The notes under the pieces are model-generated. The model saw only the letters and a program-made list of their open reading frames with translations. It had not been told where the DNA came from and ran no database searches. From NCBI GenBank assembly GCA_040390065.1, contig JAZJZE010000001.1:337102-401101 (forward strand): a stretch of DNA of 64,000 bases, written 5' to 3'. Position numbers and translations under genes: made by a program. The DNA comes from a bacterium (GTDB lineage Archaea; Thermoplasmatota; E2; JACPAO01; JAHFTW01). The first letter of the stretch is position 1, and the number at the start of each line of letters is the position of its first letter. Of the stretch, positions 49,238 through 57,031 are shown piece after piece.

Positions 49238-49702
49238 ATGGCAAAACGCGTCATCGTCAACGTCGGCGCCGCCCGCCGCAAGCTGCGCAAGGCAAAGGCG
49301 GTCATCGAGACCCGCTCCAAGAAGGAGTTCCTGTACCGTGGCAAGAGCCTCGCAGAGTTGCAGGCCATGCCCCTGGACCAGGTGCTGCCCCTGCTGCCGA
49401 GCCGCACCCGCCGCCTCTACACCCGCGGTGTGAAGCCGGAGGAGAAGCGCTTCCTCGAGAAGGTCGAGGCCGCCAAGCCCGGCGAGGTCGTGCGCACGCA
49501 CTACCGCCACATGGGCATCCTGCCGCGCTTTGTCGGCAAGATCGTCGCCGTGCACAACGGCCACGAGTTCCAGAACGTGACGGTCCAGCCGGAGATGATC
49601 GGCCACCGCCTCGGCGAGTTCGCGATCACCACGAAGGCCTGCATCCACTCGGGTGTGGGTGTCGGTGCGACACGGTCGAGCAAGCATGTCCCCCTGAAGT
49701 GA
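49238..49702 (+). CDS. rps19: 30S ribosomal protein S19 (uS19)
   Basis: VAVHNGHEFQNVTVQPEMIGHRLGEFAITT; operon position. Confidence 0.95.
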   Translation: MAKRVIVNVGAARRKLRKAKAVIETRSKKEFLYRGKSLAELQAMPLDQVLPLLPSRTRRLYTRGVKPEEKRFLEKVEAAKPGEVVRTHYRHMGILPRFVGKIVAVHNGHEFQNVTVQPEMIGHRLGEFAITTKACIHSGVGVGATRSSKHVPLK

Positions 49703-50322
49703 TTGCCATGGCGACCTACTACTCCACCGTCAGCGATTCCGAAACCACCGCTCGCGCCTATGGCCGCGACCTGGACTGCTCCCCGAAGAGCGGCCGCAAC
49801 GTCGCCCGCGCCATCAAGGGCATGCCCGTCGCGCGCGCCAAGACCTTCCTGCAGGAAGTTGCCGAGCTCAAGACGCCGGTCCCCTTCAAGGTCCGCAACC
49901 GCAAGATCCACCACCGGCGCGGCCAGGGCTTCGGCCCCGGCAAGTACCCGGTCGGCACGGTCACGCGTATGCTCAAGGTGCTCGAGTCCGCCGAGGCGAA
50001 CGCCGAATACAAGGGGCTCGACAAGGAGCGCCTCGTCATCACGCACGCCACGGCCTACCAAGGCACCGTGAACCAGGCGTTCACGCCGCGCGCCCAGGGC
50101 CGCGCAACGCCGCACTACAACCGCAAGTGCAACTTCGAGGTCATCGTCAGCGTCATCGAGGAGGACGAGGAGTCGGCGTCGCCCCGCAAGGGCCGCGCCG
50201 CCAAGTCCGCCAAGACCGCGAAGCCGAAGGCAGAGAAGGGCGAGAAGGCCGAGGCCAAGGGCGCCAAGGCCGACAAGCCGGCCCCGAAGGCCACGAAGGA
50301 GTCCAAGGGAGCTGAGAACTGA
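49699..50322 (+). CDS. rpl22: 50S ribosomal protein L22 (uL22) with Lys/Ala/Glu-rich C-terminal tail
   Basis: ARAYGRDLDCSPKSGRNVARAIKGM. GTG 49699 overlaps the rps19 stop (ATG 49708 is an alternative). Confidence 0.92.
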   Translation: MIAMATYYSTVSDSETTARAYGRDLDCSPKSGRNVARAIKGMPVARAKTFLQEVAELKTPVPFKVRNRKIHHRRGQGFGPGKYPVGTVTRMLKVLESAEANAEYKGLDKERLVITHATAYQGTVNQAFTPRAQGRATPHYNRKCNFEVIVSVIEEDEESASPRKGRAAKSAKTAKPKAEKGEKAEAKGAKADKPAPKATKESKGAEN

Positions 50323-51191
50323 TGGCAGTCGAACGCAAATTCATCAAGGAATCCGTCAACCGCCTCCTGGTCAAGGATTTCGTCAAGAAGGAGACCGAGC
50401 GCGCCGGCTACGGCGGCATGGACATCCAGCGCACGCCGCTCGGTACCCGCGTCAACATCGTCGCCGAGCGCCCGGGCATGGTCATCGGCCGCCGCGGCGA
50501 GACCATCAACAAGCTCACCTCCCGCCTGCACGGCGAGTTCGGCCTCGAGAACCCGCAGATCTCCGTCGAAGAGCCGAACTACAACCCCGGCTTGAACGCG
50601 CAGATCATGGCCATCAAGGTCGCCGAGTCCCTGGAGCGCGGCTGGCACTTCCGCCGCGTCGGCCACAGCACCGTCCAGCGCGTCATGGCATCCGGCGCCC
50701 AGGGCGTCATCGTCGAGATCGCCGGCAAGCTCACGGGCCAGCGCAAGCGCCGCGAGAAATTCATCGCCGGCCACGTCAAGTACTGCGGCGAGACGGCCCT
50801 CACCCTGATGGACGTCGGCTACGCCCAGTGCAAGAAGAAGCTCGGCATCATCGGCTGCACCGTCCGCATCATGAAGAAGGACGCCCACCTGCCCGACGAA
50901 GTCAAGATCTTCGCGCCCGGCGAGAAGGATGCCGCAGAGGCAGCCCGCAAGGCCCGCGTCGCCCAGCAGGCCGCTGGCGTCCAGACCGTGGCACCCGACT
51001 TCGGCGGCGGCGCCGCAGCCGGAGCCAGCCCGCAGACCGGCACGGCATCCCCCGCCCCGGCAGCGCCGGCGGCCCCGGCCGGCCCCCGCATGCCCGCATC
51101 GTCGGGACCGGTGGAGCCGCCCTCGAAGACGGGCGACCGCCGCGAGCGCAAGTCCTTTACCGTCGGCGGCACCTCGGGAGGTAGCCAATAA
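50322..51191 (+). CDS. rps3: 30S ribosomal protein S3 (uS3)
   Basis: MAVERKFIKESVNRLLVKDFV.. KH domain; long Ala/Pro-rich C-terminal tail. Confidence 0.95.
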   Translation: MAVERKFIKESVNRLLVKDFVKKETERAGYGGMDIQRTPLGTRVNIVAERPGMVIGRRGETINKLTSRLHGEFGLENPQISVEEPNYNPGLNAQIMAIKVAESLERGWHFRRVGHSTVQRVMASGAQGVIVEIAGKLTGQRKRREKFIAGHVKYCGETALTLMDVGYAQCKKKLGIIGCTVRIMKKDAHLPDEVKIFAPGEKDAAEAARKARVAQQAAGVQTVAPDFGGGAAAGASPQTGTASPAPAAPAAPAGPRMPASSGPVEPPSKTGDRRERKSFTVGGTSGGSQ

Positions 51192-51445
51192 TGCTCAAGG
51201 CCAACGAAGTCCGCGCCATGCCCAAGGAAGACCGCAAGTCCCGTCTGTCGGAACTGCGCCGGGAACTCATGCAGGAGCGCGGCATCCAGGCCATGGGCGG
51301 CTCGACGCCGAACCCCGGCAAGATTCGCACGCTGCGCCGCGAGATTGCGCGCATCCTGACCATCCAAAACGAAGATGTCCATGGTATCAAGCGTGGCCCG
51401 GCGGTCGTCGTCGCCGGCCGCGCCAAGAAGGAGTCCGCGAAGTGA
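51191..51445 (+). CDS. rpl29: 50S ribosomal protein L29 (uL29)
   Basis: MLKANEVRAMPKEDRKSRLSELRRELMQER; TAATG junction with rps3. Confidence 0.93.
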   Translation: MLKANEVRAMPKEDRKSRLSELRRELMQERGIQAMGGSTPNPGKIRTLRREIARILTIQNEDVHGIKRGPAVVVAGRAKKESAK

Positions 51446-51482
51446 ATTCCGACGTCTCCCGGGCAGCCCGCGGAGGCCCGCA

Positions 51483-51776
51483 GTGATCTGCGACACCTGT
51501 GGCCTTCCCAAGGAGATTTGCGTGTGCGAGGACATCGCACGCGAGCAGCAGGAGATCCGCATCACGACGGACTCGCGCCGCTACGGCAAGAAGATGACGA
51601 TCGTCGACGGCATCGTCGACAGCACCATCAGCCTGGACAACCTCCTCTCGACCCTGAAGTCGAAGTGCGCTTGCGGTGGCACCATCAAGGAAGGCGCCAT
51701 CGAGTTGCAGGGCGACCACGCCAAGAAGGTCCAGAAAGTGCTTCTCGAGATGGGATTCCAGGCCCGCGTTGAGTGA
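51483..51776 (+). CDS. sui1: Translation initiation factor aSUI1 (eIF1 homologue)
   Basis: GTG start. ICDTCGLPKEICVCE..RRYGKKMTIVDGI..CACGGTIKEGAIELQGDH. Confidence 0.88.
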   Translation: MICDTCGLPKEICVCEDIAREQQEIRITTDSRRYGKKMTIVDGIVDSTISLDNLLSTLKSKCACGGTIKEGAIELQGDHAKKVQKVLLEMGFQARVE

Positions 51777-52016
51777 GCATTTCGCAGAATCCCTTCGGTC
51801 CGTCATCCATCTGGATGCCTCGCAGATTGACCAAACCGGGAAAAAACAATCCGTGGAATCTGCTCCCAGTCCGCGCCATTGCAAGACGTGCAAGAGCTCA
51901 CCAGGGGGATACCTGAGATCTCGGGGGAATCTGTGGATTGGTGGCGGGTACTCCGCAACGAGCGCACCAAGGCCTGTTCGACGGCGTTCAGGAACGTCGG
52001 CTGCCTCGGCTCTCCC

Positions 52017-52412
52017 ATGACCCGCTCGCGGCCGCAAGACTCGCCTGAGACGCAGACCATCCTCCAAGCCGCAGTCGGCATCCACAACTGGCTCGGCGGC
52101 GGCCACCCGTGGGCAGCGTACCGCGAAGCGTTGGCATGCGAGTTCGCGCTGCGCGCCATCCCGTTCTGGCGCGAGCCGTTTCGTCCCGGCCACGCCGTCG
52201 ACTTCCTCTGCTCTCCGGGAATCGTCGTGGACGTGCAGCGCGACGTGGACGACGGCCGCGAACGCGACGTGCACGAGGTGCTGCAGGAGACCGGCCTGGC
52301 GTTCGGGCTTCGCCTGGATTTCGCGGGCCCATGCCTCGAAGTGCACCAGATCTGCCTCCGTCACGGGCCCAACCTGGTTTTTCAACGGCCGGCGCCCTCG
52401 GCCGCGTCGTGA
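52017..52412 (+). CDS. Hypothetical protein inserted in the r-protein operon; weak DUF559/Vsr-like endonuclease resemblance
   Basis: ATG 52017. High third-position GC. Its stop overlaps the rnp1 GTG start (GTGA). The segment AIPFWREPFRPGHAVDFLCSPGIVVDVQRD..RDVHEVLQETGL loosely recalls the DUF559 core. Confidence 0.4.
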   Translation: MTRSRPQDSPETQTILQAAVGIHNWLGGGHPWAAYREALACEFALRAIPFWREPFRPGHAVDFLCSPGIVVDVQRDVDDGRERDVHEVLQETGLAFGLRLDFAGPCLEVHQICLRHGPNLVFQRPAPSAAS

Positions 52413-52702
52413 AGCGCACCATCCCCCGGCTCGAGGGGGCCGCGCGGGCCGTCGCCCGGGGCGAACTCATTGGCCTTGCCGTGGCCGTCGTGGAGTCGAC
52501 CGACCCCGGGCTGGTGGGCTTGGCCGGCGTCGTCGTGGACGAAACCCTCCGGACCCTGGTGGTTCGGCGTGGCGATGGGCGCGAAATGCGCGTCGGCAAA
52601 CCCGGGACCACCTTCGAATTCGCTTCAGCCGGCGGTCGTGTTCGTATCCCCGGCGCTGCCATCGAGTTCCGCCCCGAGGACAGGACCAAGAAGGTCCGGT
52701 AG
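52409..52702 (+). CDS. rnp1: RNase P protein component 1 (Rpp29/Pop4)
   Basis: GELIGLAVAVVESTDPGLVGLAGVVVDETLRTLVV..FRPEDRTKK; the expected gene between L29/SUI1 and S17. Confidence 0.88.
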   Translation: MKRTIPRLEGAARAVARGELIGLAVAVVESTDPGLVGLAGVVVDETLRTLVVRRGDGREMRVGKPGTTFEFASAGGRVRIPGAAIEFRPEDRTKKVR

Positions 52703-53023
52703 GGGAAAACCGTCCTTGTCTGCGTGGTCGTGGTGTCGGTGGTGGTGGGCTCCGCCGTCGCCGGTGGGCGCGCCGTCGTCCGGCGCGGCGGCGTCCGCCT
52801 TGTCGCCCTGCTTCAAGGTTTGGGGCTCGATTGGCGCCGAGGCCACGGGTTGCGGCCCCTCGGCGTGGGCGCTTCCCGGGACCAAGGACTGCTGCAGGGC
52901 GGTCGGCGCGGCAAACGGCCGGCCAACCTTCCCCAGGTCCGCACGGTCGGGAAAGGCGACGACGGGGGCAAGGAGGACGAACGCCATGAGCGCGCCCAAG
53001 ATGGGACTTGACAGGTCCCTCAA
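52625..53023 (-). CDS. Possible small secreted His-rich protein (antisense, overlaps the rnp1 3' end)
   Basis: MRDLSSPILGALMAFVLLAPVVAF hydrophobic N-terminus, GGAHHHRHHDHADKDG cluster, mostly GC-ending codons. However, 78 nt overlap rnp1 convergently. Confidence 0.3.
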   Translation of the reverse strand: MRDLSSPILGALMAFVLLAPVVAFPDRADLGKVGRPFAAPTALQQSLVPGSAHAEGPQPVASAPIEPQTLKQGDKADAAAPDDGAPTGDGGAHHHRHHDHADKDGFPLPDLLGPVLGAELDGSAGDTNTTAG

Positions 53024-53165
53024 GGTTGCCCCTCACGACGGCGGCACGCGCGCATGCCCACGCTCTTGGCGCGGTGGGGCCAGATACCTTGCGACAAAAT
53101 TGCCCGCATGGGGCCAGCGACCCCTGACCTGCAAGCTTATCGCGGGGCCCACCCTGGACGCAGCC

Positions 53166-53381
53166 ATGCCTGGAACGTATGCGGTCACGAAGCGGGGCCT
53201 CAAGGGCGAACCCCTCGAGATCCGCTGCGAGTCGCACGAGGGTTGCACCTGGACCATGAAATCCACCGGCCCCAAGTCCGACCGCGACCCCATCTTCGAG
53301 GCGCAGTGGAAGAACCACATGATGGAGGCCAAGACACCCGACGTGCAGGCCTTCGGCCACCTGCGCCGCTCCCGCAAGTAG
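53166..53381 (+). CDS. Hypothetical small protein (71 aa)
   Basis: MPGTYAVTKRGLKGEPLEIRCESHEGCTWTMKSTGPKSDRDPIFEAQWKNHMMEAK.. Strongly GC-ending codons and non-repetitive composition. Start could be further upstream. Confidence 0.45.
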   Translation: MPGTYAVTKRGLKGEPLEIRCESHEGCTWTMKSTGPKSDRDPIFEAQWKNHMMEAKTPDVQAFGHLRRSRK

Positions 53382-53388
53382 GTGCCCC

Positions 53389-53610
53389 GTGGACCAGCAC
53401 AAGCGCATCGCCCACCTCAAGGATCTGCAGAACGAGAACGACATCCTGCTGCACCAGATGCAGGACCACTTGGCGAAACTGCAGCGCCACCACGCCTCCC
53501 GGGAACGCGACCGCGGCATGCTGCACGCCACCAAGGCCATCGCGCGCGCCGAGAAGGAGAAGCGCTGGCTGGACAGGCAGATGCGCAACGAGTCGAAGCG
53601 TTCGAGCTGA
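53389..53610 (+). CDS. Hypothetical coiled-coil small protein (73 aa)
   Basis: GTG start 8 nt after the previous stop, with AGGTG just upstream. (M)DQHKRIAHLKDLQNENDILLHQMQDHLAKLQRHH.. GC-ending codons. Confidence 0.5.
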   Translation: MDQHKRIAHLKDLQNENDILLHQMQDHLAKLQRHHASRERDRGMLHATKAIARAEKEKRWLDRQMRNESKRSS

Positions 53611-53802
53611 TCCGCTTCACAAGGGGCCGCCGGGGCGAAGCAACGCAGTGACCGGCTACCAAATCGTGCGACGGTGGCGACGCGAATGGGGTGCCCGCAT
53701 GGCCGGATTCGGGCCCTACGGAATCACCGATGACACCGATGAAACCGAGACGACCTTTGGGTGGGCCGGTGAAGCTCGCGTTTCTTCAGGCTTGCAAGGA
53801 CG

Positions 53803-53886
53803 GGCGGCCTGGGAGAACAGGAACTTCGTAGAGAGAAGGAGAACGGGTTCCGGTTCTCCGGTCGTCTCCTGTTCTCCCAGGCCGCC
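53803..53886. other. 84-nt hairpin with a perfect 20-bp stem and an inner 7-bp stem
   Basis: GGCGGCCTGGGAGAACAGGA (53803-53822) is the exact reverse complement of 53867-53886. Inner stem GGAGAAC/GTTCTCC. Lies in a non-coding spacer. Confidence 0.8.
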
Positions 53887-53978
53887 GTTGCCCGAAAGAC
53901 CAGGAACCCGTGGAAAACCGGGAAAAAGCGGTTCGCTTTCTTCGGGGGCTTCCCGATCTTTCAGGCCCCCCGAAGCGC

Positions 53979-53986
53979 TTATATCC
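53979..53986 (+). promoter_or_regulatory. TATA-like TTATATCC upstream of rps17
   Basis: Best A/T patch in the spacer. ~193 nt upstream of ATG 54179, implying a ~170-nt structured leader. AGGAG Shine-Dalgarno-like at 54164-54168. Confidence 0.4.
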
Positions 53987-54178
53987 AACGGGGAGTCCCC
54001 GACTCCTAGCAACAGGTGCTGTGGCGTCTCCCGCCGCAATGCCTGGGACCGTATCTAGCCCGACAAACGGCCGGGTCGCAGTCGTCGAGGATTCGTTACC
54101 CTCGGAGGCTGCTAAGGCAACGGAATCTTCCTCCTGGAAGACACCCGTTTCCGCCGCAACACAGGAGAAGTCAATCCC

Positions 54179-54664
54179 ATGCCCAACCGCGACATCGGCA
54201 TCGACGTCAAGGCTCCCGCGCGCGAGCCGGCCCCAGGCGACCGCCTGAACCCATTCAACGGCAGCCTGCCCATCCGCGGCAGCGTCATCGTCGGCACCGT
54301 CGTGTCGGCCAAGATGCAAGGCACCGCCATCGTCGAGAAGCAGCACCAGCGCCTCGTCGAGAAGTTCGAGAGGTACGAGAAGCGCACCCGCCGCTACGCT
54401 GCCCACGTCCCCTCCAACATCGACGTCCACGAGGGCGATGAGGTCTCCATCGCGGAATGCCGCCCCATCTCCAAGACCGTGACCTTCGTCGTCGTCGAGA
54501 ACCGCGGCAACCCGGCCGCCGTCCGCGCCGTCCCGGCCCGCAACGTCCCCGCCAAGCCGGAGCCCAAGGCCAAGCCCATCCCCGCGTCGGCCGAGAAGCC
54601 GGCCGCCGGCAAGGCCGCCGCCCCCGCCGCCAAGCCCGCGAAGGCCCCCAAGAAGGAGGCCTAG
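54179..54664 (+). CDS. rps17: 30S ribosomal protein S17 (uS17) with Ala/Pro/Lys-rich C-terminal tail
   Basis: RGSVIVGTVVSAKMQGTAIVE..YEKRTRRYAAHVP..EGDEVSIAECRPISKT. Confidence 0.93.
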   Translation: MPNRDIGIDVKAPAREPAPGDRLNPFNGSLPIRGSVIVGTVVSAKMQGTAIVEKQHQRLVEKFERYEKRTRRYAAHVPSNIDVHEGDEVSIAECRPISKTVTFVVVENRGNPAAVRAVPARNVPAKPEPKAKPIPASAEKPAAGKAAAPAAKPAKAPKKEA

Positions 54665-54667
54665 GAC

Positions 54668-55069
54668 ATGCGTGGAATCCCCGGCAACGTCACGCGTGGC
54701 CTGCCCCGCGGCGCCCGCATGGAAGTCATCGACAACACGGGCGCCAAGGAAGTCGAGATCGTCATGGTCCCCAAGCTGGGCGGCGTCATGAAGCGCTACC
54801 CGGCCGCCGGTGTCGGCGACATGATCATCGTCTCCGTCAAGAAGGGTACGCCCGAGATGCGTCGCCAGATTCTCTACGCCGTCGTCGTCCGCCAGCGCCG
54901 CCCCTACAAGCGCGCCGACGGCACCACCGTCCAGTTCGAGGACAACGCGTGCGTCATCATCAACGAGGAGGACGGCGAAGTGAAGGGTTCCCAGATCAAG
55001 GGGCCCGTCGCGAAGGAAGCCGCTGCCCGCTGGCCCCGCATCGCCGCAACCGCGGCCACGATCATCTGA
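54668..55069 (+). CDS. rpl14: 50S ribosomal protein L14 (uL14)
   Basis: ARMEVIDNTGAKEVEIV..GDMIIVSVKKG..RQRRPYKRADGT. Confidence 0.95.
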   Translation: MRGIPGNVTRGLPRGARMEVIDNTGAKEVEIVMVPKLGGVMKRYPAAGVGDMIIVSVKKGTPEMRRQILYAVVVRQRRPYKRADGTTVQFEDNACVIINEEDGEVKGSQIKGPVAKEAAARWPRIAATAATII

Positions 55070-55078
55070 GGTGACACC

Positions 55079-55606
55079 ATGTTCCGCTCCCGCTCCGTCC
55101 AGAACCGCAAATTCCGCACCGCCTCCACGCAGCCCCGAAAGCAGCGCAAGGCGATGTACGACGCGCCGCAGCACATTGCCCGCAAGGCGCTGGCCAGCCA
55201 CCTCTCCGAGGAGTTGCTGCTGAAGTACAACCGCCGCAGCCTCACCGTCATCAAGGGCGACGAGGTCAAGGTCCTGCGCGGCGACTTTGCCGGCAAGTCG
55301 GGCAAGATTATTGGCATCGATGTCCCGGCTCGCCGCGTCACCGTCGACGGTGTCGTGAACAAGAAGGCGGACGGCACCGAGGTCGCCCGCTCCATCCACC
55401 CGTCCAACCTGCTCCTGGTCAAGCTCAACCTCGAGGACAACCGCCGCCGCGAGAAACTCGCCGAGGCCGAAGAGTCCACGAAGATGGGCACCTCCAAGAA
55501 GGCGGCCAAGCAGCCGTCCAACAAGGGCAAGCCCGCCAAGAAGGAGGCCCCCGCCAAGGCGGAGGCCAAGCCTGAGCCGAAGAAAGAAGTGGAAGTGAAG
55601 GTATGA
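55079..55606 (+). CDS. rpl24: 50S ribosomal protein L24 (uL24) with Lys/Ala-rich C-terminal tail
   Basis: KQRKAMYDAP..LTVIKGDEVKVLRGDFAGKSGKI KOW motif. Confidence 0.93.
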   Translation: MFRSRSVQNRKFRTASTQPRKQRKAMYDAPQHIARKALASHLSEELLLKYNRRSLTVIKGDEVKVLRGDFAGKSGKIIGIDVPARRVTVDGVVNKKADGTEVARSIHPSNLLLVKLNLEDNRRREKLAEAEESTKMGTSKKAAKQPSNKGKPAKKEAPAKAEAKPEPKKEVEVKV

Positions 55607-56325
55607 GCAAGCACCTGAAGCGCCTGGCAAGCCCGCGTTCGTGGGCGATCCCGCGCAAGACCAACGTCTACACGACGAAGCCCCGCCCCGGCGCGCACCC
55701 CATCGAGCGCGCCCTGCCCCTGGCGACCATCGTGCGCGACGTCCTCCAGCTCACCACCACGGGCCGCGAAGCCCGCCGCGTCATCGGCGCCGGCGAGGTC
55801 ATGGTCGACGGCCGCGTCGTCAAGGAACCCAAGTTCGCCGTCGGCTTCATGGACGTCGTCACCGTCGTGAAGCTCGGCAAGTCCTGGCGCGTCGTCGTCG
55901 ACGAAAAGGCCCGCCTCCGCCTGGCCCCCATCGAGTCGGCCCAGGCCGCGTGGAAGCTCGTCCAGATCGACGACAAGACGACCGTCTCCGGCGGCCGCAC
56001 CCAACTCAACTTCCACGACGGGCGCAACCTGCTAGTCAAGAAGGACGATTACAAGACCGGCGACGTCCTGCGCATGGAGCTCCCGTCGCAGAAGATCCTC
56101 GGCCACTTCCCCTTGAAGGAAGGCGCCCAGGTCTTCATCACGTCCGGCCGCCACGCCGGCGAAGTGGCGCCCGTCAAGGCCATCGAGGTCACGCGCAGCC
56201 ACAAGCCCAACCTCATCCACCTCGCCGTCGGCGACGTCGCGTTCACGACCATCAAGCCGTACGCGTTCCCCATCGGCGACAAGTCCAACATGCCCTCCAG
56301 CACGGCGGTGAAGACGATTGTCTAA
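55603..56325 (+). CDS. rps4e: 30S ribosomal protein S4e (eS4)
   Basis: MSKHLKRLASPRSWAIPRKTNVYTTKPRPGAH; ATGA overlap with rpl24. Confidence 0.95.
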   Translation: MSKHLKRLASPRSWAIPRKTNVYTTKPRPGAHPIERALPLATIVRDVLQLTTTGREARRVIGAGEVMVDGRVVKEPKFAVGFMDVVTVVKLGKSWRVVVDEKARLRLAPIESAQAAWKLVQIDDKTTVSGGRTQLNFHDGRNLLVKKDDYKTGDVLRMELPSQKILGHFPLKEGAQVFITSGRHAGEVAPVKAIEVTRSHKPNLIHLAVGDVAFTTIKPYAFPIGDKSNMPSSTAVKTIV

Positions 56326-57031
56326 GAATGAAAACAAGGGCGAGAACACCCGCGAGAACAAGTCCGGCAAGGACGCGCAGGGCTTCACGATCAAGGCCGA
56401 GAAGGCCGACAAGCCCGCCGCCAAGCCGGGCGCCAAGAACCCGTTGGCCACCGTGTACCCGGACCGCAAGCGCGCGGCCAAGGTCGCCAGGCCGGTCCTC
56501 ACCAAGATGGCCGCGGGCGCCACGAACCCGATGACGGTGCCCCGCATCGCCAAGGTCACCGTCAACATCGGTGTCGGCGACTCCGGCGAGAAGCTGGAGA
56601 AGGCCGAGAAGGTCCTGGCCAAGCTCACCGGCTGCAAGCCCGTGCGCACGCTCGGCCGCGAGATGAACCGCGAACTGAACGTCCGCCTCGGCCAGCCCAT
56701 CGGCTGCAAGGTCACCCTGCGCGGCGAGGACGCCGACTCGTTCGTCAAGCGCGCCCTCTACACGCGCAAGAACAAGGTGTACGAGTACTCCTTCGACAAC
56801 CAGGGCAACCTGCAGTTCGGCGTCACCGACTACACGAACTTCGAGGGCGAGCGCTACGACCCCGAGATCGGCGTCTTCGGCATGGACGTCTGCATCACGC
56901 TCGAGAAGCCGGGCTTCCGCGTCAAGCGCCGCCGCATGGTCGCGGCCAAGATCCCGGCCCAGCACCGCGTCACCCGCGACGAGGCCAAGGCCTTCCTGTC
57001 CAAGAAATTCGCCATCGAGGTGGTTGGATGA
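56318..57031 (+). CDS. rpl5: 50S ribosomal protein L5 (uL5), possibly with ~60-aa Lys/Ala-rich N-terminal extension
   Basis: Core [24 protein letters not shown]... TTG 56318 overlaps the rps4e stop. ATG 56507 would give a conventional N-terminus. Confidence 0.9.

Follow-up and report, generated by a model that had tools for sequence, protein, structure and literature searches.

The window analysed here is a 64,000-nt stretch of DNA (C1:337102-401101 of G000, the window's own genome) from an uncultured soil archaeon, whose metagenome-assembled genome comprises 2.68 Mb in 50 contigs with 89% completeness and approximately 67% GC, and whose few named homologues are labelled 'Thermoplasmatota/Thermoplasmata archaeon'. 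It carries a cluster of ribosomal-protein (r-protein) genes in the order L2, S19, L22, S3, L29, SUI1, a GxxExxY-like open reading frame (ORF), rnp1, a gap, S17, L14, L24, S4e, L5, S14, S8 and L6. The gap between rnp1, coding for the RNase P protein Rpp29/p29, and rps17 spans 1476 nt (52703-54178) and consists of non-ribosomal, variable sequence that ends in the TATA box and leader of rps17. This leader is a previously undescribed, family-specific and conserved RNA with a pseudoknotted fold. A sequence-only reading of the window had interpreted the gap as acquired sequence that split the operon into two transcription units; every item listed there was found at its position, and the interpretation was partly supported.

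Promoter and leader of rps17

The promoter, the elements of the leader and the gene that follows are arranged as given below.

53970..53985, plus strand: rps17 promoter, a transcription factor B recognition element (BRE)-like CCGAAGCG followed by the TATA box CTTATATC
54006..54178, plus strand: rps17 leader RNA, matched by the covariance model R1, with covariation
54013-54045, plus strand: P1, the 5' hairpin of the leader, with the loop UCUCC at 54027-31
54048-52, plus strand: single-stranded ACCGU of the leader
54058-62/54072-76, plus strand: P3 of the leader
54078-81/54109-12, plus strand: P4 of the leader, with an inner hairpin at 54086-90/54100-04 and the loop AUUCGUUAC
54113-17, plus strand: UAAGG of the leader
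54116-23/54145-52 and 54126-31/54136-41, plus strand: P5 of the leader, around an AA/CAC internal loop
54153-57, plus strand: pseudoknot partner GCCG(C) of the leader
54164-68, plus strand: Shine-Dalgarno (SD) site GGAGA
54179..54664, plus strand: rps17 (uS17; NCBIfam uS17, 1e-37), with a K/A/P-rich C-terminal tail

The TATA-like TTATATCC at 53979, the leader of about 170 nt and the direct repeat CCGCCGCAA at 54031 and 54151 were all confirmed, while the 'small stem-loops' noticed by the sequence-only reading turned out to belong to a large conserved fold with covariation in 24 genomes. The hexamer TTATAT was invariant in all 12 aligned genomes (11 members of the window's genus and G015), and CTTATAT[CG]C together with the leader was present in 11 of the 11 genus members examined. 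In nearly all of the genus members the TATA box was located 26-28 nt before the first position of the R1 model, a distance that predicts a transcription start near 54006-54010. The 200 nt located 5' of rps17 showed 77-84% identity across the genus and the DNA farther upstream was unrelated; from 53968 on, the DNA was as conserved across the genus as the rps17 coding sequence itself. The conserved blocks were AACAGG, GCCCG, CGGGYCGCA, CGTTAC, YAAGG, GGAA..YACC and CAGGAGA, with indels that were not multiples of three. In the block of approximately 165 nt after TTATAT, conserved single-stranded words alternated with helices that changed in a compensatory manner, for example GCAG/CUGC, GCAC/GUGC and GCAU/AUGC, or UCUUCC/GGAAGA versus GGGUG../..GCCCU. 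All of the model matches (24/24) ended in CAGGAGA or AAGGAGA approximately 8-12 nt before the AUG, so that the conserved block included the SD.

The covariance model R1 has 157 positions and 31 base pairs. It gave exactly one match per genome in 24 of the 32 genomes of the family, distributed over 7 of the 11 genera. Relatives were also compared by a DNA search of 40 genomes, in which the flanking genes were placed by tblastn on the fetched loci, and the R1 match adjoined rps17 in every genome for which rps17 was also listed in this search. No match was obtained in 165 other genomes of the class, and a sample of 401 genomes of the phylum gave one marginal match outside the family (E=0.009).

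RNAalifold analysis detected compensatory double changes in 15 of the 31 pairs. In the 24-sequence alignment made with the model, 92.9% of the cells were paired, compared to 74.4% in shuffled alignments, double changes were seen in 21/31 pairs, and the covariation score was 0.491 against 0.178 after shuffling (reached by 0 of 500 shuffles; slid controls ≤0.135), although these shuffle statistics overstate the significance because the sequences within a genus are related. An independent MAFFT alignment, which was not fitted to the model, also recovered P3 and P5 with 11 of 17 pairs being compensatory. The frequent G-U pairs indicated that the RNA strand is the strand of rps17. When all column pairs were scanned blindly for additional tertiary pairs, conserved G and U/C columns produced nothing but noise. 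Rfam searches across the gap, which the sequence-only reading had proposed, gave no family match above threshold; Rfam 15 (cmscan on 51000-55000, E≤1) returned nothing in 53985-54185, leaving the leader unmatched, and ARAGORN detected no tRNA or tmRNA gene in the gap. RNase P RNA, H/ACA or C/D small RNA, a T-loop or tRNA-like element and a leader peptide were considered as identities for the leader and dropped, as the defining boxes were absent and the indels did not come in threes.

The spacers of G022 (L029) and G016 (L030), of 137-153 nt, contained a common GGGGGGGAACGUGCCCCC hairpin and a P3-like stem, CCCCGG..CCGGGG. These spacers, which have no TATA box, possibly represent a reduced element related to the leader (14.7 bits to R1).

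Probable translational control by the leader: proposed mechanism and alternatives

The 5' hairpin had an invariant lower stem, CAGG/CCUG, and a covarying upper stem, with 5 of its 9 pairs showing compensatory changes. CUCC was located in the apical loop of this hairpin in most members of the genera g1 and g8 and in g9, and it matched the anti-SD in the 3'-terminal sequence of this organism's 16S rRNA (..CACCUCCU). In g2, g4 and g6, CUCC was located in the 3' strand of the hairpin and paired to an upstream GGAG, giving an arrangement of decoy SD, anti-SD and real SD. The second feature was a possible pseudoknot, as base pairs are possible between the P3 loop (GCGGU) and GCCGC, located 6-7 nt upstream of the SD. 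The 5-bp duplex was kept through variants, namely ACCGU in G005 and G006, GACGG/CCGUC in the genus g4 and UGCGG/CCGCA in G023, and the mean duplex length was 4.75, compared to 4.05 (sd 0.17) for shuffled tails.

These sequence features suggested that the leader most likely controls the translation of the downstream r-protein genes. We regard it as fairly probable that rps17 has its own promoter, that the leader is an autoregulatory r-protein leader, and that the gap upstream tolerates cargo. The large r-protein cluster of the family would then consist of two transcription units, cut between rnp1 and rps17, and rps17 with L14, L24, S4e, L5, S14, S8, L6 and so on would be expressed from its own BRE/TATA promoter behind a folded 5' leader of ~170 nt, which would act as a cis-regulatory RNA of the r-protein-leader kind. 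The leader core composed of P3, P4 and P5 would be locked by the pseudoknot between the P3 loop and GCCGC, and the 5' hairpin would show the 16S-like anti-SD YCUCC in its loop or, in other genera, hold it in the 3' strand paired to a GGAG decoy. A surplus of an operon-encoded ribosomal protein may bind the leader core, which would shift the balance between the anti-SD kept in the hairpin and the anti-SD paired to the SD, and this shift would lower the translation of rps17 as well as that of the downstream genes coupled to it.

The Methanococcus L1 mRNA site is an experimentally studied archaeal r-leader, and the pseudoknotted rps17 leader of ~165 nt is larger than most r-leaders. The number of cis-regulatory RNAs known from archaea is very small. 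Four further archaeal r-leaders have been predicted, which are S15-Halobacteria, S15-Methanomicrobia, eL15-Euryarchaeota and L4-Archaeoglobi (Eckert & Weinberg 2020; PMC7247131), and the published list includes none for S17 or a spc-type unit (PMC7247131). The rps17 leader resembles the archaeal r-leaders in being a covariation-backed structure in the 5' untranslated region of an r-protein operon, on the same strand, present once per genome, restricted to a lineage, and with the SD inside the conserved block. It differs in that it precedes rps17, the head of the spc-like part of the cluster, is found in one uncultured family of Thermoplasmatota and has no match in Rfam 15. The anti-SD and the pseudoknot strand beside the ribosome-binding site, with mutually exclusive pairings, recall pseudoknot regulators that sequester the SD, namely the E. 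coli rpsO/S15 leader and the preQ1-II and SAM-II riboswitches; this would be an analogy of mechanism and not homology, and the rps17 leader is archaeal. With its large size, its covariation and its readable features (the anti-SD loop and the SD-adjacent pseudoknot), the rps17 leader gives access to a direct test of translational feedback in archaea with SD initiation.

By precedent, a ribosomal protein encoded in the operon would be the most likely ligand. Candidates are uS17, encoded by the closest gene, uS8, on the E. coli precedent, and uL5 or uL18, the last two on account of a weak resemblance to 5S rRNA. The genes corresponding to S17, L14, L24, L5, S14, S8 and L6 are regulated in the E. 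coli spc operon through autoregulation by S8, and S8 is therefore a candidate ligand here. In contrast to the E. coli site, which is located at the start of L5 and mimics helix 21 of 16S rRNA, the present leader lies before rps17 and does not reproduce the helix-21 core UAGAC. A 10-mer, AAUGCCUGGG, was identical to 16S helix 21 and was found among the leaders only in G000. The leaders had an invariant UCGCA at the position of UAGAC in 16S rRNA and only CCUGG of the site was conserved among them, so that the A/U/A core characteristic of helix 21 was not present. Mimicry of the S8 site was thus rejected, since AAUGCCUGGG was specific to G000 and the S8 core was not kept.

A second resemblance concerned 5S rRNA (C1:29076-29195 of G000). 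The leader strands GACACCCGUUU (54142-54152) and ACGGAA (54120-54125) were similar to the strands of 5S helix III (GAUCACCCGUU and ACGGAA) in a circularly permuted order. In G000 the 5S-like strands were GACACCCGUU and ACGGAA, and only GGAA/YACC was conserved among the leaders. The 5S rRNA is invariant at the corresponding position (CA) and the leaders vary (CA/UA), hence there was no co-variation between the two, and we treat 5S mimicry as a low-probability lead. A narrower proposal built on it, which we rate as improbable, would make the leader a feedback sensor in which the pseudoknotted core binds uL18 or uL5 through the permuted 5S helix III (ACGG-AA-helix / helix-CAC-CCGU) and flips the switch among decoy SD, anti-SD and SD. 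If this were true, the output of the spc-type operon would be coupled to the supply of 5S rRNA, by a recognition logic new for archaea.

Several points weigh against a promoter-driven, protein-regulated rps17 unit, in addition to the inflation of the shuffle statistics. The position of the TATA box and covariation are the basis both for the predicted transcription start and for regarding the leader as an RNA, and the pairing between the anti-SD and the SD lies beyond the reach of covariation because both are invariant. The fold is partly ambiguous, as the local CAGG/CCUG stem and a long-range 'P1' given by RNAalifold, in which AGG pairs with CCG beyond P5, compete with each other. Convincing rRNA mimicry was not detected: the leader had only 8-10-mers in common with 16S, 23S and 5S rRNA of the same organism in BLAST and motif comparisons, and the GGAA/YACC loop occurred in rRNA at chance frequency in a crude scan that also missed the leader's own P5 loop. 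Finally, all that g5 and g11 have at this position is a spacer that is short, degenerate (14.7 bits to R1) and without a TATA box, showing that leader and promoter are not universal in the family; this spacer may represent an ancestral co-transcribed state or a degenerate one.

Two other functions of the same RNA were weighed. The leader could be a riboswitch-like or physical sensor of a small molecule, an ion or temperature, which acts via the pseudoknot and the anti-SD and involves no binding of an r-protein. Its compact multi-helix fold, its pseudoknot adjacent to the SD and its conserved unpaired blocks (ACCGU, the CGUUAC loop, YAAGG and GGAA/YACC) are typical of ligand pockets, and the failure to find rRNA mimicry would agree with such a sensor. 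However, the element occurs in one copy per genome and only before r-protein genes, whereas the normal targets of a riboswitch are several genes for transport or biosynthesis, and the well-documented RNA structures in such a genomic position are all protein-binding leaders (PMC7247131). We therefore consider a sensor unlikely. Slightly less likely again is a role other than translational regulation, in which the conserved fold would serve RNA processing or stability or be a small RNA in its own right; examples would be an endonuclease entry site that separates the messages of rnp1 and rps17, or a structure that stabilises the 5' end. Such a role would suit the location directly after the gene of an RNase P subunit and the degenerate version found in the 137-153-nt intercistronic spacer of g5 and g11, where there is no TATA box. 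Against it, the conserved block continues unbroken into the SD and stops 8-12 nt short of the AUG, the positions of the anti-SD and of the pseudoknot partner are set relative to the SD, and neither ARAGORN nor Rfam detected anything in the gap that is tRNA-like or related to RNase P. An autoregulatory r-protein leader thus remained the preferred reading of the structure.

The gap as an old and plastic site

Upstream of the promoter, the gap and its borders contain the following features.

52409..52702, plus strand: rnp1 (RNase P protein Rpp29/p29), 97 aa, Pfam PF01868 p29
52625..53023, minus strand: ORF of 132 aa from TTG, or 120 aa from ATG 52987, convergent with rnp1
53135..53141, plus strand: TATA-like GCTTATC ~29 nt upstream of the orf71 ATG, a putative promoter
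53166..53381, plus strand: orf71, 71 aa, lineage-specific, with coding signal
53389..53610, plus strand: orf73, 73 aa, predicted helical hairpin (antiparallel coiled-coil), starting 7 nt after the end of orf71
53640..53801, no strand assigned: non-coding spacer with no coding frame, whose 5' part (~53643-53715) resembles a repeat module
53802..53886, no strand assigned: repeat unit A, a long imperfect hairpin of 85 nt with perfect 20-bp outer arms
53887..53972, no strand assigned: repeat unit B, a second hairpin of ~85 nt

The comparison of synteny proposed by the sequence-only reading showed that rnp1 and rps17 lie close together outside the window's genus, with a spacing of 38 nt in the sister family (G027) and of 137 nt (G022) and 153 nt (G016) in other genera of the family; in G015, likewise of another genus of the family, the spacing was 1.0 kb. 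Within the genus the spacing ranged from 431 nt (G006) through 1.2 kb (G008), 1.65 kb (G004) and 1.7 kb (G005 and G012) to 3.4 kb (G002), 4.2 kb (G007) and 4.95 kb (G009), with differing genes. An M28 peptidase lipoprotein was encoded in the gap of G009, G002, G005 and G007. The gap of G009 also contained genes for a hemerythrin, a winged helix-turn-helix regulator and a secreted protein of 520 aa, and that of G007 genes for a GNAT protein and a secreted protein of 635 aa. DUF1428 was found in G005, DUF4287 in G006 and a SnoaL-like protein in G008. In G012 (L028, G012:C49), a PIN-domain toxin directly followed a 69-aa ORF that resembled an antitoxin and had no family match. The layout of G004 was the same as that of the window, with the GxxExxY-like ORF, rnp1, the minus-strand ORF, orf71, orf73 and S17 in this order. 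The gaps examined showed neither an integrase or transposase gene nor an att-like duplication.

As the spacing and the cargo differ between genomes, the gap is an old, plastic site and not the product of one recent insertion. The promoter and the leader, which are common to seven genera, are likewise no recent acquisition and predate the cargo of this genome. The split into two transcription units is old and probably underlies the tolerance of the site for insertions: as rps17 would no longer depend on transcription reading through from rnp1, the stretch that separates the two would be free to gain and lose cargo up to the promoter. At this locus the cargo comprises a probable minus-strand gene for a small membrane protein, the orf71-orf73 unit and one copy of a mosaic repeat lying against the promoter. 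More generally, an own promoter for an inner gene of an operon can make the junction upstream of it insertion-tolerant, which explains why a ribosomal cluster that is rigid elsewhere accumulates accessory genes, toxin-antitoxin pairs and selfish repeats.

The least probable alternative is that the operon was continuous until a recently acquired foreign segment split it and supplied or generated the rps17 promoter, which would agree with the non-ribosomal, species-variable content of the gap, with a repeat copy that is nearly species-specific and with the adjacency of rnp1 and rps17 in the closest sister families, but is largely refuted for promoter and leader by their presence in 7 genera, and is also opposed by the occurrence of orf71 in the gap of five other genus members and of the M28 peptidase in four, by orf71 and orf73 being native-like in GC content and codon usage, and by the examined gaps being free of recognisable integrases, transposases and att-like duplications. 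Of the split by acquired sequence proposed in the sequence-only reading, the non-ribosomal variable DNA and the separate TATA box and leader of rps17 stood, and the creation of promoter and leader by the insertion did not; orf71, taken there as part of the acquired insertion, is old at the site.

Genes and repeat in the gap

The GC-ending codons pointed out for the two tandem ORFs were confirmed, with GC contents at the third codon position of 0.90 for orf71 and 0.93 for orf73. The codon log-odds, trained on the neighbouring r-protein genes, were 0.76 for orf71 and 0.91 for orf73 in frame and -0.4 or lower in the other frames, compared with 0.23 for rnp1 and about 1.25 for S17 and L14. Both ORFs are thus clearly coding, with a codon usage nearer to that of r-protein genes than that of rnp1, and represent conserved small proteins. 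The GCTTAT(C/G) box upstream of orf71 was kept as GCTTATG at the equivalent place in G004, although the surrounding spacer was only 42% identical; this points to a near-leaderless orf71-orf73 unit, for which GCTTATC would be the promoter.

Homologues of orf71 were found in eight relatives with 50-82% identity, within the gap in G004, G009, G007, G002 and G010 and outside it in G019, G006 and G011. A profile search of 1.8 billion representatives gave 17 clusters, nearly all of ~70 aa, and a search of genome contigs gave three loci. The invariant residues were C21, H24, C27, H51 and the C-terminal QAFGHLRRSR. The AlphaFold2 (AF2) model of orf71, with a predicted local distance difference test (pLDDT) score of 70.8, consisted of a beta-hairpin and a helix, and no PDB match was obtained either by Foldseek with this model or by a profile-based sequence search of PDB. 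Only four proteins of the orf73 kind were found, with the gene directly following orf71 also in G004 and G019, and the AF2 model of orf73 (pLDDT 89.2) showed two long helices forming a confident helical hairpin. Pfam, NCBIfam, PHROGs and PADLOC gave no family match for orf71, orf73 or the minus-strand ORF. In G006 (L039/L067, G006:C24, Thermoplasmata archaeon nzgw65), the orf71 homologue is located directly downstream of a 244-aa ORF that resembles aIF2-beta by eye. This neighbour, the location in the r-protein cluster and a codon usage of the highly expressed type hint that orf71 may have a role in translation.

For the minus-strand ORF, the hydrophobic N-terminus, the histidine cluster GGAHHHRHHDHADKDG and the 78-nt overlap with rnp1 were as previously described; the product is of low complexity. 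A gene of 120 aa, starting from ATG 52987, was called for it in the Logan assembly. Its coding statistics were ambiguous because the antisense frame scored equally. An ORF at the corresponding place and strand of G004 begins, similarly, with MRD and a hydrophobic, transmembrane helix and ends in an acidic low-complexity tail; beyond the N-terminus the two ORFs could not be aligned. The minus-strand ORF probably encodes a small protein that evolves fast and is secreted or located in the membrane.

No frame with a coding signal was found in 53611-53978, and the strong hairpins recognised there earlier were confirmed by a perfect 20-bp inverted repeat (53803-22/53867-86). What had been taken for a highly structured non-coding stretch, as of a dedicated RNA gene, is a copy of a selfish repeat dispersed over 29 loci. 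Unit A was present at all 29 loci of the family with 72-87% identity and unit B at approximately 15 of the 29, with further modules at some; the segment ~53643-53715 resembled a module located 5' of unit A in other copies, the closest being C19:7400-7480 (69% over 253 nt). The loci in G000 were found on C9 (17), C11 (4), C8 (3), C2 (2) and, with one each, on C1, C12, C17 and C19. All 29 were intergenic and none overlapped a robust ORF. The relatives had at most one weak copy. The copy in the window ends 6 nt before the TATA box of rps17 and leaves the promoter untouched, and the Logan contig breaks within unit A, as expected of a repeat. The distribution was strongly uneven, with 17/29 copies on C9 and none on the 450-kb contig C5. 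Two copies on C9, 265821-265982 (plus strand) and 270911-271072 (minus strand), scored equally without visible difference and are inverted at a distance of ~5 kb.

The repeat is a mosaic of hairpin modules, for which a REP/BIME-like dispersed palindromic repeat is the descriptive class. It shares with REP/BIME/REPIN of proteobacteria and with MITE/PATE of archaea the short palindromic units, the strictly intergenic location, the tens of copies, the mosaics, and the gain and loss between close relatives. Unlike those, its units are much longer hairpins (~85 nt) and no Y1 transposase (PF01797; RAYT or IS200/IS605 TnpA) was found. The search for this enzyme gave no match in G000, an 89%-complete genome, with controls positive in 6 of 14 genomes, and membership of the REP/RAYT and IS200/IS605-derived families was accordingly not supported. 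An identity as PATE or REP was rejected by the same test. As regards MITE features, no terminal inverted repeats with a target-site duplication were recognised and no consistent boundary was seen in the alignments, an autonomous partner having been sought only as Y1. Rfam returned only sub-threshold look-alikes of miRNA hairpins for the repeat.

The assignment of rnp1 was supported by a score of 70.4 bits against Pfam PF01868 (cut-off 27, 1.3e-19). Its true start is GTG 52409, which overlaps the TGA of the upstream GxxExxY-like ORF; the length of 97 aa was also obtained by an independent gene call on the Logan contig, and the orthologues in relatives showed 64-75% identity.

The GxxExxY-like ORF between SUI1 and rnp1 (52017-52412, plus strand, 131 aa) matched TIGR04256 with 29.1 bits (cut-off 35) and PF13366 with 22 bits (cut-off exactly 22), both being weak matches. 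An orthologue with 46% identity was located at the equivalent place in G004, and none was found in G005, G006 or G007. This ORF is a second insertion within the same operon.

The ribosomal proteins L22, S3, S17, L24 and L5 (encoded by 49699-50322, 50322-51191, 54179-54664, 55079-55606 and 56318-57031, respectively) carry long low-complexity extensions rich in K, A, P and E, similar to histone H1 tails, as exemplified by the S17 tail ...PAKPEPKAKPIPASAEKPAAGKAAAPAAKPAKAPKKEA.

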